Assembly: GCA_028864975.1 (NCBI GenBank)
Contig: JAGWLG010000003.1
Span: forward strand, 86,150-150,149
Reading direction: 5' to 3'
Source: Thermoplasmata archaeon
GTDB taxonomy: Archaea; Thermoplasmatota; Thermoplasmata; Lutacidiplasmatales; UBA184
Length of the DNA: 64,000 nucleotides
Shown: positions 59 to 4,369 of the stretch, one piece after another
How the letters are laid out: every line of letters starts with the position of its first letter
Numbering within the stretch: position 1 is the stretch's first letter
Made by a program: the position numbers and the translations under genes
The notes under the pieces: model-generated
Told to the model about the DNA's origin: nothing
The model's input: the letters and a program-made list of their open reading frames with translations, nothing else
Database searches by the model: none

Positions 59-904
59 CTACGTGGCCCGCACGACGTGGTTAAAGTCCCGTTCCAGCGT
101 CGCGACCTGCGAGCGGCTGAACGCGCCGGGATCGACCGACAGCACGAGCAGCCCGTGGTGCTGCTGGACCTTGCTGTGCAGCCAGTAGACGAACTTCGTC
201 GTGAGGTCGAAGGAGTTCTGCGTGTTGAGGAACTCGACCGCCTCGAGGTAGACGAGCGCGGGCTCGGGCGTTCCGTTGAGGAAGTTGTCGACGCGCCCCG
301 TGAGCTGCGTCGGGGAGGACTCGGCCGCCTCGACCCCCTCCTCGGTGGTCCCTTCGACACCCAGGTGGAGGATCACCAGGTCCTCGACAGGGGCCATGCG
401 ACGCAGTTCGTTCGGAAGTCTGGTGATGGCGAGCCCTCTTCCTACCCGGGGGAGGAGTTCGCGGAGGAACGAGCGCGCGACCTGGCGGGTCTCCTCCAGG
501 AAGAGGTAGTTGTACCCTGGGACCGCCGGGGGGAAAGCGGGCGCGCTCGAGGAGCCCCGCGGCTGGACGCGCACGAGGCTCTCGACGGGGATGCCGACCG
601 GGGTCGAGAGCAGGGTCTTCCGCTTGAGGCGCACTTCCTCGTCGAGGTGCCCGAGCCGGCTCTCGACGAAGACCCGGATCTCGGAAGGGGTGTGGCCCCT
701 CGCGACCAGACGGGTCACGAAGTGGAGCGCGTCGCGGGCCCCATCGCCCCAGCCTCGGGCGTAGGAGGTCGGTCCGTCCCCCCTGGAGGAGGAAGTGTCC
801 GAGTCGTCCAGGGCTTGGGGCTCCGTGTCGGTGCCCTCCTCTTCGTTCGCTCGTCGAGGGGCGGGGGACGCGGCCGGGGGAAGGCCTCCCGTTCGGCCGG
901 TCAC
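59..904 (-). CDS. DUF835 domain-containing protein (degenerate KaiC/RecA-like domain)
   Basis: C-terminal half has the DUF835 pattern (GLAITR...VYLEAVEFLNTQNSF...LLVLSVDPGAFSRSQVATLERDF); GTG start overlaps the upstream TGA (GTGA at 901-904). Confidence 0.8.
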   Translation of the reverse strand: MTGRTGGLPPAASPAPRRANEEEGTDTEPQALDDSDTSSSRGDGPTSYARGWGDGARDALHFVTRLVARGHTPSEIRVFVESRLGHLDEEVRLKRKTLLSTPVGIPVESLVRVQPRGSSSAPAFPPAVPGYNYLFLEETRQVARSFLRELLPRVGRGLAITRLPNELRRMAPVEDLVILHLGVEGTTEEGVEAAESSPTQLTGRVDNFLNGTPEPALVYLEAVEFLNTQNSFDLTTKFVYWLHSKVQQHHGLLVLSVDPGAFSRSQVATLERDFNHVVRAT

Positions 905-1389
905 GTGCGCGCGGTCCGGGCCGCGGCCCGGGCGAGAGCCTCCTGAGAGGCCGGGGAGGCTGTAGGTTCGCTCGCTCCGCTCTCGCGCGAGGGGGCGAAC
1001 TTGTAGCCGTAGTGGATCACGCCGGCGCGCCCGTCCTCCCGGAGCTTGCGGAAGGCGGCGTGCACCCTCATCCCGATGTGCACGTCCGCGGGGGTGATGT
1101 CGACGACCTGCCCCGTGAGGAGCGGGCCCTCGGGGGTCTTGATGAGGGCCAGCACGTAGGGGACCTGCATCTCGAAACCCTCCGCCCCCTCGTGGACGAC
1201 CGAGAAGGAGTAGACCTCCCCGTCCCCCGAGAGGGTGAAGGGCTCCATCTTGCCCAACGACTGGCGGTGCGTCTGGCAGGTCGGGCAGACGGCCCTCGGC
1301 GGGAAGTAGACGGTCGAGCAGGCGCTGCAGCGGTTCCCACCCAGGTTGTAGCGGCGGGGCGTCTCTCTCCAGAATCTCGCAACGGTCAT
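901..1389 (-). CDS. DUF35 family Zn-ribbon/OB-fold protein (thiolase/HMG-CoA synthase scaffold)
   Basis: MTVARFWRE start at 1389; CxxC...CxxC (CSAC, CPTC) followed by OB-fold GEVYSFSVVH...YGYKF; next to the thiolase and HMG-CoA synthase genes. Confidence 0.92.
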   Translation of the reverse strand: MTVARFWRETPRRYNLGGNRCSACSTVYFPPRAVCPTCQTHRQSLGKMEPFTLSGDGEVYSFSVVHEGAEGFEMQVPYVLALIKTPEGPLLTGQVVDITPADVHIGMRVHAAFRKLREDGRAGVIHYGYKFAPSRESGASEPTASPASQEALARAAARTART

Positions 1390-1414: not shown

Positions 1415-2587
1415 TCAGGTCGCCCTCTCCAAGAGATGGACGACGCTCGTGGCGCCCGTGCCTCCCAGGTTGTGGGTGAGACCGACCTGGGCCCCCGCGA
1501 CCTGCCGCTCCTTCGCCTCGCCCCGGAGCTGTCGGACGACCTCGGCCACCTGGGCGACCCCCACCGCGCCGAAGGGCTGTCCTTGGGCCTTGAGCCCGCC
1601 GGAGGAGTTGATGGCGAGCCGGGCCCCGGGAGGGCCGACGGTGCCCTCGGCGAGGGCCTTGCCGACGCCCCCCTTCGGACAGAATCCCAGGTCCTCGAGG
1701 GCGAGGAGGGCACTGATCGAGTAGGCGTCGTGGATCTCGGCGACCTGGACGTCCGCCGGGGTCCTCTTCGCGTGGCGGAACGCCACCTGGGCGGCGAGAC
1801 GGGTCGCCTCCACCGTCGTGATGTCCTTGCGGTGCTGCAGCGCGAGCGTGTCGCAGGCGACCTGGCTCGCGCAGATGCGGATGGGGGTGTCCGTGTGCTC
1901 TCTCGCCTTCTCGAGCGGGCCCAGGACCAGCGCGGAGGCCCCGTCGGAAGCGGGGGCACAGTCCATGACCCCCAGAGGTTGAGCGACGGGCGAGCCTTCC
2001 AGCACTTGGTCGAGGGAGACCTTGTTGCGGAAGTGCGCTAGGGGGTTCTTCGAGCCCATCTCGTGGGCGAGCACGGGGAAGCGCGCGAAGTCCTCTCTCC
2101 GAGTCCCGTGGTCGTGCATGTGCCGCCGGGCGATGAGCGCCCACAGCGAGGGGAGCGTCGCGCCGAAGACCGTCTCCCACTCCTGGTCCGCGCTCGCGTT
2201 CGCGATGTCCGTCTGGACATCCTCCGGGACGTCCGTCATCTTCTCGGCCCCGCCCACGACGACGTAGTCGTGCGCGCCGCTGGCGACGGCGAGGTAGGCC
2301 TGGTGCAGCGCGACCGCTCCGCTCGCTCCTCCCGCTTCGACGCGGATCGCGGGGAGATGATGGCCCGCGAGCCCCGCGTAGTCGAGGATCAGGGGGGCGA
2401 TGTGCTCCTGCTCGATGAAGCTCCCCGAGGCCATGTTCCCCAGGTAGAGCGCGCTGATGTCCTTGGAGGAAAGCTTCGCCTCCTGGAGCGCGGCGAATCC
2501 CGCCTCGATCCCGATCTCCCGGAACGAGCGGTCCCAGAGCTCGCCGAACTTCGTCTGCCCGATGCCCAGGATCGCGACCTCCCGCAT
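1415..2587 (-). CDS. Archaeal acetyl-CoA acetyltransferase (thiolase)-fold protein with substituted catalytic motifs
   Basis: MREVAILGIGQTKFGELW start; thiolase architecture throughout (DCAPASDGAS, EIHD, NSSGGLKA, HNLGGTG), but VEAGGASG, HDAY and GQP replace VEAACASG, HDCF and GHP. Confidence 0.9.
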   Translation of the reverse strand: MREVAILGIGQTKFGELWDRSFREIGIEAGFAALQEAKLSSKDISALYLGNMASGSFIEQEHIAPLILDYAGLAGHHLPAIRVEAGGASGAVALHQAYLAVASGAHDYVVVGGAEKMTDVPEDVQTDIANASADQEWETVFGATLPSLWALIARRHMHDHGTRREDFARFPVLAHEMGSKNPLAHFRNKVSLDQVLEGSPVAQPLGVMDCAPASDGASALVLGPLEKAREHTDTPIRICASQVACDTLALQHRKDITTVEATRLAAQVAFRHAKRTPADVQVAEIHDAYSISALLALEDLGFCPKGGVGKALAEGTVGPPGARLAINSSGGLKAQGQPFGAVGVAQVAEVVRQLRGEAKERQVAGAQVGLTHNLGGTGATSVVHLLERAT

Positions 2588-2589
2588 GG

Positions 2590-3657
2590 TCAGCTCCCTC
2601 CCAGGTGGATCTTCCCGCGGAACTTCGCGTACATGGCGTAGGAGAGGGGAACTCCCCCGTCGAGGAACTCCTGGACCGGGGGGCCGTGCTGCCGGTCGAA
2701 GCCCTCGATCCGGTCGGTGACCGTGAGGTCGAACGCGTCGGAGCCCGCGCCGCTGCCGTACCCGACGACCAACACACGGTCGCCGGCCTTGGCGTGGTCG
2801 AGCACGTTCGCGAGCCCGAGGAGCGCGGCACCGGAGTAGGTGTTGCCCACCCACGGGGTCACGAGACCGTACTTCATCTGCTGGTCGGAGAACCCCATGG
2901 ACTTCCCGATGCGCTGAGGGAACTTCCCGTTGGGCTGGTGGAAAACGACGTGCTGGTAGTTCTGAGGAGAGGTCTGCGCCCGCTCCATCATGCGCCGCCC
3001 GCACTCTCCCACATGGCGGAAGTAGGCCGGCTCGCCCGTGAACCTTCCTCCGTGGCTCGGGTAGCGCTGGCCCTCCCGACGCCAGAAGTCGGGGGTGTCC
3101 GTGGTGAAGCTCTCCGTCGCGTTGATCTCCGCGATCAGGTTCTCGCGGCCGATCACCAGCGCGGCCCCGCCAGCGCTCGCCGAGTACTCGAGAGCGTCAC
3201 CGGGGGCGCCCTGGGAGGTGTCCGCGCCGATCGCGACACCGTAGGTGATCATCTTGCTCGCCACCATCCCCATGCAGGTCTGGATGGCCGCCGTTCCCGC
3301 CTTGCAGGCGAACTCGAAGTCCGCCGCGGTGAGGTAGGGGGTCGCGCCGACAGCCTGGGCGACGACCGTGGCCGTGGGCTTCACGGCGTACGGGTGGCTC
3401 TCGCTCCCGACGTAGAGCGCCCCGATGTCCCGGGGATTGATCTTGCCGCGGGTGAGCGCGATGCGCAGCGCCTCGGTCGAGATGGTGATGGTGTCCTCGT
3501 CCGGGGAGGGGACGCTCTTGCGGACGACGTTCAGCCCCTTTCCCATGGCGGCCCCATCGGTCCCCCAGACCTGCCCGATCTCCTGGGGCGTGATCCGGTA
3601 GCGCGGGACGTAAGCGCCGTAGCTCACGATGCCGACCTTCTCTTCGGTCATGTCCAT
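2590..3657 (-). CDS. mvaS: Hydroxymethylglutaryl-CoA synthase (archaeal type)
   Basis: [11 protein letters not shown] (Glu), [10 protein letters not shown] (catalytic Cys), VFHQPNGKF (His), GNTYSG and [11 protein letters not shown] all match archaeal HMGCS. Start may be 3651. Confidence 0.95.
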
Positions 3658-3691: not shown

Positions 3692-4369
3692 TCAGATCTC
3701 CTCGAGACGCTTCAGGACCTCCTTCGGTCCGTACGGGGTCGTGAGGAGCGGGATGTTCTCCACCTCGGAGAGGCGGACCGCCAGAGGGTCGACGCGGCCG
3801 GGGGCGGAGTAGATGACGGCGGCGGGTTTGAGCGGGTGCGCGCGGATCGCGACCATCGGGGAGCGACCGTACTTGACGCCGCAGAAGAGGAGGGCCCGCT
3901 GGGTCGTCCAGCCGTAGACCTGGACGAACTCCTGGGCCCCCAACGACAGGATCGCCCGCGGGGCGTCGAGGAGGGTGAACCCGTGCAGGTCCCGGTGGAG
4001 GTCGACCCGGCTCGCGGGCTTCGCGTCCAGGAGCGAGGCGAGGGTCGTGAGGGGCACCGCGATGGAGAACTCCCGCATCGCGAGGATCCCCTCGGCGGGG
4101 GAGGGGAACCCCATCCGCTGGATGACGCGGCCTCCGTGCGACTTGTCGACGGCGACCAGCCCTTCCACGTAGCGTCGGATGAACCCGGCACCAGGGCTCT
4201 GACGCCGCTCGGCCTCGTAGTCCGCGATCACGGAGGGGACGGTCTCGAGCTGATGGGCGAGCTCCGTTTGCGAGATGCCGAAGTCCTCGCGCCATTTGCG
4301 CAACGTCCGCCCGGGATGGGGGGATAGGACTACCTCGCCCGCGATCTTCTCGCGGATCTCGACCGGCAC
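3692..4369 (-). CDS. XRE-family helix-turn-helix transcriptional regulator (archaeal COG1709-like, DRTGG-like C-terminus)
   Basis: [30 protein letters not shown]...SVIADYE HTH; C-terminal GRSPMVAIR...KP motif; co-oriented directly upstream of HMGCS. Confidence 0.88.

Follow-up and report, generated by a model that had tools for sequence, protein, structure and literature searches.

We show that the thiolase-fold subunit of an archaeal operon for the opening steps of membrane-lipid synthesis, with genes for thiolase, hydroxymethylglutaryl-CoA (HMG-CoA) synthase (HMGCS, also HMGS) and a DUF35 protein, encoded in a 64,000-nucleotide stretch of DNA from a Thermoplasmata archaeon (GenBank assembly GCA_028864975.1, contig JAGWLG010000003.1, positions 86,150 to 150,149; this whole stretch is called the window below), has neither the nucleophilic Cys nor the His of GHx, is also missing the Ser of the pantetheine tunnel, and is predicted from its sequence to be incapable of the acetyl-enzyme ping-pong reaction. 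The encoded system is, as read from its genes, an ortholog of the known Methanothermococcus complex with one subunit inactivated; by analogy with that complex, the pseudo-thiolase has probably been retained since the truncated archaeal HMGCS needs a thiolase-fold subunit and DUF35 for its fused CoA site and for its assembly. The gene and the positions at issue are:

1415..2587, minus strand: Cys-less thiolase-fold subunit, 390 amino acids plus stop; ortholog of the thiolase of archaeal thiolase/HMGCS/DUF35 operons
2327..2329, minus strand: Gly87, codon GGA, at the position of the nucleophilic Cys (Cys85 of 6esq_A; Cys of the classical NxxCGSG motif)
1955..1957, minus strand: Ala211, codon GCC, aligned to the second Ser of GNSS in classical thiolases
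1721..1732, minus strand: H286-D287-A288-Y289, the HDxF motif, with His retained, Cys replaced by Ala and Phe replaced by Tyr
1724..1726, minus strand: Ala288, codon GCC, at the Cys of HDCF in 6esq_A
1577..1579, minus strand: Gln337, codon CAG, at the position of the GHx histidine

The best solved relative of the window protein is the thiolase subunit of Methanothermococcus thermolithotrophicus (6esq_A; HMMER, E 4.2e-112, residues 1-387), and this alignment pairs VEAGGASG with VEAACASG, HDAY with HDCF, and GQP with GH; profile-profile alignment with classical thiolases from the same genome and from related ones matches G87 to the NxxCGSG Cys, H286-D-A-Y to NEAF, and Q337 to the GHP His. The two alignments agree, and they bear out the initial annotation, which had placed Gly87, Ala288 and Gln337 at catalytic positions of a full-length frame free of stops: the three codons lie where it had put them, and translation runs through 390 codons without interruption. 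We take position 211 to be that of the pantetheine-contacting Ser247 of the Zoogloea thiolase. The protein scores 497 bits against NF004720, over the cut-off of 420, and 509 bits against the equivalog NF053570 (acetoacetyl-CoA thiolase, EC 2.3.1.9), under the cut-off of 600. Its predicted fold (AlphaFold, pLDDT 95.6) superimposes on the thiolase chain of the complex, 6et9_C, with a TM score of 0.95 and a root-mean-square deviation of 1.1 Å.

The same annotation had counted three expected catalytic residues as lost, which stands with one reservation: the Cys of HDCF is not strictly required. The Aciduliprofundum boonei ortholog and the Pyrococcus furiosus thiolase 7yvy both read HDAF with the nucleophilic Cys present; therefore, replacement of the HDCF Cys by Ala is by itself not diagnostic. 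The residue of this motif that is essential has been kept: substitution of H284 of the Methanothermococcus HDCF motif (H284A) eliminates HMG-CoA formation (PMC12960953), and the window protein retains this His as H286.

The loss extends well beyond the source lineage. We sampled 40 relatives, from the same genus to the same class, in which the best match always lies inside the operon; neither the Cys nor the GHx His is present in any of those read at the family or order level. Both residues are also missing from all 24 of the other genomes sampled in the same family (G, E or D at position 87; Q, R or C at position 337), and three genomes of the same genus carry exactly G87 and Q337; the substitutions are thus real and not the assembly errors that had been named as a possible refutation. 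Further operon orthologs were drawn from about 100 Thermoplasmatota genomes of about 50 families, and 80 additional loci came from a one-genome-per-species scan that is biased to close matches. Among the resulting 208 orthologs, position 87 is Cys in 87 and another residue in 121 (Gly 68, Asp 24, Ser 13, Glu 11, Thr 5), and all 121 Cys-less orthologs are placed among Thermoplasmatota sequences in the gene tree. A loss private to the source lineage is thereby rejected, and the question whether the pattern is lineage-wide, left open at first, is answered: the Cys has been lost across much of Thermoplasmata's phylum, Thermoplasmatota. Carriers named by exact-sequence look-up include Thermoplasma volcanium (WP_010916387.1), Ferroplasma acidiphilum, Cuniculiplasma divulgatum, Ca. 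Methanoplasma termitum (WP_048111530.1), Ca. Methanogranum and Ca. Methanomassiliicoccus intestinalis (WP_020449372.1). Two contigs with Cys-less operons that fall among Thermoplasmatota carry other names, CAVDQR010000106.1 (locus L214, binned as 'Bacteroides ovatus') and CAZVJB010000022.1 (L211, labelled 'uncultured Halobacteriales archaeon'); these are probably cases of bin contamination or mislabelling.

The nucleophilic Cys is present, as in A. boonei, in the sampled orthologs of Methanobacteria, Hadesarchaea, Iainarchaeota, Aenigmatarchaeota, Altarchaeum, Micrarchaeota, Baldrarchaeota, Thorarchaeota and Wukongarchaeum, and in all of the approximately 26 bacterial orthologs sampled. Orthologs from these nine archaeal groups and from bacteria have GHP throughout, and HDCF in all but Thorarchaeota (HDSF). 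The approximately 26 bacterial metagenome-assembled genomes (Ignavibacteria, Aminicenantes, Zixibacteria, Planctomycetota, WOR-3 and others) have an archaeal-type HMGCS-thiolase-DUF35 cluster with the thiolase residues intact.

Gene trees built without the trait columns require a minimum of five changes at position 87. The first loss is in a clade of Thermoplasmatales and family f16, sister to Aciduliprofundum; the second affects one member of family f53; and the third falls at the base of a 113-sequence clade (FastTree support 98) that holds the window's family together with Methanomassiliicoccales. The remaining two changes concern Cys-bearing sequences (genomes G094 and G060) that are weakly placed inside the large Cys-less clade. 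Monophyly of the Cys-less group excluding these two was not rejected by an approximately unbiased test (p 0.456; the group was named after the tree had been seen), and we therefore claim no reversions. From the trees we infer at least three independent losses of the Cys.

Two further observations concern individual lineages. Four Thermoplasmata orthologs (L148, L150, L155 and L197) read VEGGGACGA, with Gly at the nucleophile position and Cys in place of Ser two residues downstream. In four Thermoplasmatota families (f24, f42, f31 and f36) the search with the operon thiolase returned nothing at E <= 1e-90, with f24 and f42 showing classical thiolases at about 1e-49; in these four families the operon gene may have been lost or have strongly diverged.

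The Cys-less gene is under purifying selection comparable to that on HMGCS. The ratio of nonsynonymous to synonymous substitution rates (dN/dS, NG86), a check that had been proposed at the outset, falls within 0.06-0.16 for six of the seven within-family pairs, the remaining pair giving 0.27, and at the same loci it is 0.075-0.18 for HMGCS and 0.10-0.29 for DUF35. Divergence relative to HMGCS is 1.2-1.5 for Cys-less versus 1.0-1.2 for Cys-bearing orthologs, a descriptive comparison of pairs that are not independent. Set against each other, 41 non-redundant Cys-bearing orthologs and 55 Cys-less ones have mean column conservations of 0.698 and 0.682, respectively, with 86 positions conserved on both sides; those conserved in the Cys-bearing set and relaxed in the Cys-less set number only 12, namely A86, C87, C288, F289, H337, five positions in the 126-146 loop, P325 and I385. 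Such a pattern, in which constraint is lifted from the catalytic positions and maintained over the rest of the protein, marks a pseudoenzyme.

Two positions follow another course: position 211 is Ser in 87/87 Cys-bearing orthologs and Ala in 107/121 Cys-less ones, and W137 is newly invariant in the Cys-less group. The catalytic positions themselves vary among the 121 Cys-less orthologs. Position 337 is occupied by Gln (34), His (34), Arg (19), Asp (10), Tyr (9), Asn (9), Phe (5) or Cys (1); position 286 is His in 101, Asn in 12 and Asp in 6, so that the His is gone in 20; position 289 is Tyr in 78 (64%). Both His residues, 286 and 337, are present in 32 and both are gone in 18. No replacement catalytic residue becomes fixed in these 121 orthologs and no newly conserved Cys appears in them, C210 being conserved at 92% in the Cys-bearing and 91% in the Cys-less group. 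On these alignments, the varied residues at 87, 286 and 337 are best described as drift at freed sites rather than as a new active site.

The supposition that acetoacetyl-CoA would come from another thiolase agrees with the gene content of the source genome, which has intact classical thiolases and Cys-bearing paralogs of the type of the sterol carrier protein 2 (SCP2) thiolases. There are three classical thiolases, one of which (C97:35837-37003) matches the acetyl-CoA acetyltransferase 8jg3_A with E 3e-116, carries NKVCGSG, NEAF, GHP and CMGGG, and lies on the same contig as the operon thiolase (C97:87567-88736), about 50 kb away. In nine of the family's genomes, 25-51 kb of one contig separate the operon from the classical thiolase, which is a conserved linkage rather than an operon. 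Three SCP2-type paralogs have the C/HDCF/GHP residues, and two of them adjoin DUF35 genes. Two other SCP2-type paralogs of the source genome are also without the nucleophilic Cys, one (C98:5591-6925, L006-L008) with IEWGGATGG/HDAY/GHP and one (C32:144988-146118, L005) with VESASATGA/HDAF/GHP. A candidate fusion of a dead HMGS with DUF35 beside the C22 paralog found no support: what is there is a possible N-terminal extension of DUF35 of about 280 amino acids, with no HMGS domain in Pfam.

Across genomes, loss of the Cys goes together with presence of a classical thiolase, scored as a strong Thiolase_C match per genome. Among 128 genomes, those that have lost the Cys have a classical thiolase in 87 cases and lack one in 4, and those that have kept the Cys lack one in 31 cases and have one in 6. 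Marker genes put the four Cys-less genomes that lack a classical thiolase at 74-80% completeness; in G187, which is one of the four, the SCP2-type paralogs with the Cys include a thiolase/DUF35 pair. The same genome also holds a Cys-less SCP2-type paralog adjoining a DUF35 gene (L239), similar to those of the source genome, and a second AACT-like thiolase (L233, G187:C1:680945-682066) with TEAACASSS/HDCF/GHP that adjoins DUF35 and contains one in-frame TAG. When 20 genomes were chosen for the absence of a classical thiolase and their operon was read afterwards, 19 of the 20 were found to keep C/HDCF/GHP.

The pattern is simplest in Methanomassiliicoccales. Each of the 36 genomes sampled from family f8 yields exactly two Thiolase_C matches, of which one is the dead operon gene and the other a classical thiolase; the classical thiolases of Ca. 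Methanogranum and Ca. Methanoplasma termitum have all four catalytic motifs. Five Methanomassiliicoccales genomes that are 99% complete hold just these two genes with a thiolase fold, and no enoyl-CoA hydratase or 3-hydroxyacyl-CoA dehydrogenase above the cut-off; feeding HMGCS is therefore the only evident role for their classical thiolase. In Methanogranum no mevalonate genes adjoin the classical thiolase, whose neighbours are an M20 peptidase and TiaS.

The operon around the Cys-less gene is intact. Its other members and neighbours in the window are:

2590..3657, minus strand: HMG-CoA synthase, 355 amino acids, truncated archaeal type; NF003274, 541 bits; 6esq_I, E 1.6e-143
901..1389, minus strand: DUF35 scaffold protein, 162 amino acids, rubredoxin-like zinc ribbon plus OB fold; PF12172 and PF01796; 6esq_E, E 1.9e-36
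3692..4369, minus strand: XRE-type helix-turn-helix regulator, directly upstream of HMGCS; PF13560, E 4.6e-6
59..904, minus strand: DUF835 protein; PF05763, E 3e-13; its GTG start overlaps the DUF35 stop (GTGA)

Five genes are thus clustered on one strand, in the order XRE regulator, HMGCS, Cys-less thiolase, DUF35 and DUF835; the thiolase ATG follows 2 nt past the HMGCS stop, and GGAGG precedes the DUF35 gene. HMGCS keeps its catalytic residues, as had been noted from the start: E86/C118/H240/N272 correspond to E82/C114/H238/N270 of 6esq_I, the tetrad defined for HMGS in PMC12960953. The zinc-ribbon cysteines of DUF35 are all present (4/4). The window has a G+C content of 67.7%, and the source assembly comprises 3.6 Mb in 124 contigs and is about 90% complete. 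Of the loci retrieved together with their flanks, only one departs from the order HMGCS-thiolase-DUF35. In the single exception, L109 (G187:C1:1176048-1182208), a Cys-less thiolase and DUF35 are found with no adjoining HMGCS.

These findings lead us to propose how a dead thiolase could have been kept. HMGCS and thiolase each contribute two dimers to the Methanothermococcus complex, which also has four DUF35 proteins (PMC11522927), and by homology with 6ESQ/6ET9 the window complex would have the same composition, with thiolase-fold dimers in place of the thiolase dimers. PMC12960953 (citing Vogeli 2018) states that in the archaeal complex HMGS is inactive by itself and thiolase by itself is insoluble; the CoA site is described there and in PMC11522927 as fused at the HMGS-ACAT interface, and the latter source gives archaeal HMGCS as 50-100 residues shorter than its bacterial and eukaryotic counterparts. 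The window HMGCS keeps this short form, with 355 residues. The dead subunit would thus still provide half of the fused CoA chamber at the HMGCS interface, and would keep the truncated archaeal HMGCS assembled and active. Acetoacetyl-CoA would be made by a stand-alone thiolase II or by the Cys-bearing SCP2-type thiolase/DUF35 pairs and would reach the shared chamber of HMGCS by diffusion, channelling having been lost. The catalytic residues would have been released from selection after a second thiolase had become available, while structural selection continued; decay would then have been stepwise, the Cys going first, His337 and C288 next and H286 last, an order that fits relaxation after functional replacement. 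The initial annotation had offered a pseudo-thiolase that persists as scaffold or as contributor to the CoA site, and purifying selection, relaxed catalytic positions, the modelled fold (TM score 0.95) and the intact operon all argue for such a role.

Several points weigh against this proposal. The need of HMGCS for a thiolase subunit is known from one organism, by secondary citation. Losing channelling for an endergonic step looks costly, and the proposal gives no reason why the loss is tolerated. The association of Cys loss with a classical thiolase comprises only 4-5 independent phylogenetic contrasts, a number with which a sign test cannot reach significance, and a classical thiolase is also present in the six Cys-bearing genomes counted above. 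Lastly, the invariant W137 and the near-fixed S211A change in the Cys-less clade are hints, from the alignments, of some new constraint.

These last features would be accommodated if the Cys-less subunit had been reshaped into a docking or gating module that captures acetoacetyl-CoA or another acyl-CoA for HMGCS, or that regulates entry into the mevalonate pathway. An invariant W137, replacement of the tunnel Ser by Ala and a freed 126-146 loop would together have turned a channelling machine into a ligand-controlled complex in a large share of Thermoplasmatota. We regard such a reshaping as unlikely.

A related view gives the dead site a regulatory task: it would bind acyl-CoA or CoA and tune HMGCS to the acetyl-CoA/CoA state of the cell. 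Many pseudoenzymes keep ligand binding; in the homologous complex the CoA chamber is shared with HMGCS; and, as a matter of speculation, the newly invariant W137 could be a ligand contact. However, loss of the tunnel Ser (S211A) argues against a retained thiolase-side binding mode, and we give this view only a small chance of being correct. It fits the data and shares ground with the retention of a pseudo-thiolase for the CoA site and assembly of HMGCS.

It is also conceivable, and in our estimate improbable, that the Cys-less subunit is neofunctionalised and performs other chemistry in the complex, for example of a decarboxylative or aldol type. Repurposed active sites do occur in the superfamily, in the Ltp2/Sal aldolases and the KSQ/CLF decarboxylases (PMC12329534 and PMC12960953), and the invariant W137, the near-fixed A211 and the change of Phe289 to Tyr in 78 of the 121 Cys-less orthologs could be read in this way. 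However, no polar residue is fixed at the active-site positions, each of 87, 288 and 337 being occupied by at least five residue types, and the 20 orthologs that lack the HDxF His speak against the idea as well. KSQ-type enzymes have Gln at the nucleophile position and retain both His residues, whereas the position here is Gly, Asp, Ser, Glu or Thr and only 32 of the 121 have both. In Ltp2 and Sal the catalytic Tyr opens the motif YDHF/YDCY, a position that here is H286 and not Y289 (PMC12329534). An Ltp2-like aldolase built on the Tyr of HDAY was accordingly rejected as a candidate: the catalytic Tyr belongs at the first position of the motif, and Y289 is only 64% conserved.

A thiolase that works with another nucleophile is very improbable. 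The candidates would be Cys210 in the pantetheine tunnel, which is conserved (91%) and stands next to the pantetheine-tunnel Ser of classical thiolases, and, in the four relatives with VEGGGACGA, the Cys at position 89. However, C210 is equally conserved in the Cys-bearing orthologs (92%), so there has been no compensating gain; the activating or assisting residues H337, C288 and S211 are gone too; and the window protein has Ser at 89. Finally, a decaying relic, i.e. a young pseudogene, or an assembly artefact has nothing in its favor beyond the loss of catalytic residues itself and can be dismissed almost with certainty, given the full-length open frame in 121 genomes of many families, dN/dS of about 0.1, the absence of Cys and His in all 24 other family genomes, and the Cys-less state of closed genomes of cultured species.

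Comparison with known systems sets retention of a pseudo-thiolase for HMGCS in context. The Methanothermococcus complex (2018, PNAS 115:3380) shares with the window three orthologous genes in the same order and an HMGCS of the same truncated length with the same tetrad, but the thiolase here has lost both Cys residues, that of the nucleophile and that of HDCF, as well as the His of GHx and the tunnel Ser; with these residues missing, ping-pong synthesis of acetoacetyl-CoA would not take place, and therefore the channelling of the known complex could not operate. PhlABC of Pseudomonas protegens (5M3K), MucABC of Streptococcus macacae (9VBO) and PfACAT/HMGS-DUF35 are likewise tripartite and retain one dead thiolase-fold subunit that their assembly requires, but it is the HMGS-like subunit that is dead in the bacterial complexes, with the E-C-H-N tetrad lost, and the ACAT-like one that keeps its Cys (PMC12960953). 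The early suggestion of a mirror case of PhlABC thus holds up, in that HMGS is intact and the ACAT-like subunit appears dead; moreover, the bacterial complexes have left primary metabolism, whereas the window complex remains in the mevalonate pathway. As in the concept of a pseudoenzyme subunit derived from PhlA and MucA, the residues of catalysis are lost here, and fold, operon partners and purifying selection are kept.

The steroid aldolases Ltp2-ChsH2 (6OK1) and Sal-Shy (9MYR) and the SCP2-thiolase-like protein TbSLP of Trypanosoma (5AB4) also have an SCP2-type fold that has lost the nucleophilic Cys, and the two aldolases have a DUF35 partner (ChsH2 and Shy, respectively). However, they have a conserved YDHF, YDCY or YDCF with the catalytic Tyr first, where the Cys-less orthologs have His, Asn or Asp, and the window protein is only 25-28% identical to them. 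Classical thiolase II (8JG3, 1DLU) catalyses the reaction expected of the operon gene, and its copy in the source genome has the four catalytic motifs; it differs in belonging to a distant branch of the superfamily and in standing alone, with no contact to DUF35 or HMGCS. Full-text literature searching turned up no paper on operon thiolases that lack the Cys, whether from Thermoplasmatota or from other groups, a provisional result as most subscription journals lie outside its coverage.

In conclusion, the thiolase/HMGCS/DUF35 complex has been presented as the general archaeal means of pulling the endergonic thiolase step by channelling. If the thiolase is dead in much of Thermoplasmatota, this model fails for Thermoplasma, for Ferroplasma and for the gut-methanogen order Methanomassiliicoccales; the annotation of the operon gene as 'acetyl-CoA C-acetyltransferase' would then be functionally wrong, and metabolic reconstructions should assign the first step of the mevalonate pathway to the bacterial-type thiolase II. 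The Cys-less operon would offer a natural experiment on the retention of pseudoenzyme subunits, an exact mirror of PhlABC and MucABC with their dead HMGS half, and, as the complex occurs in cultured organisms, one that is directly testable.

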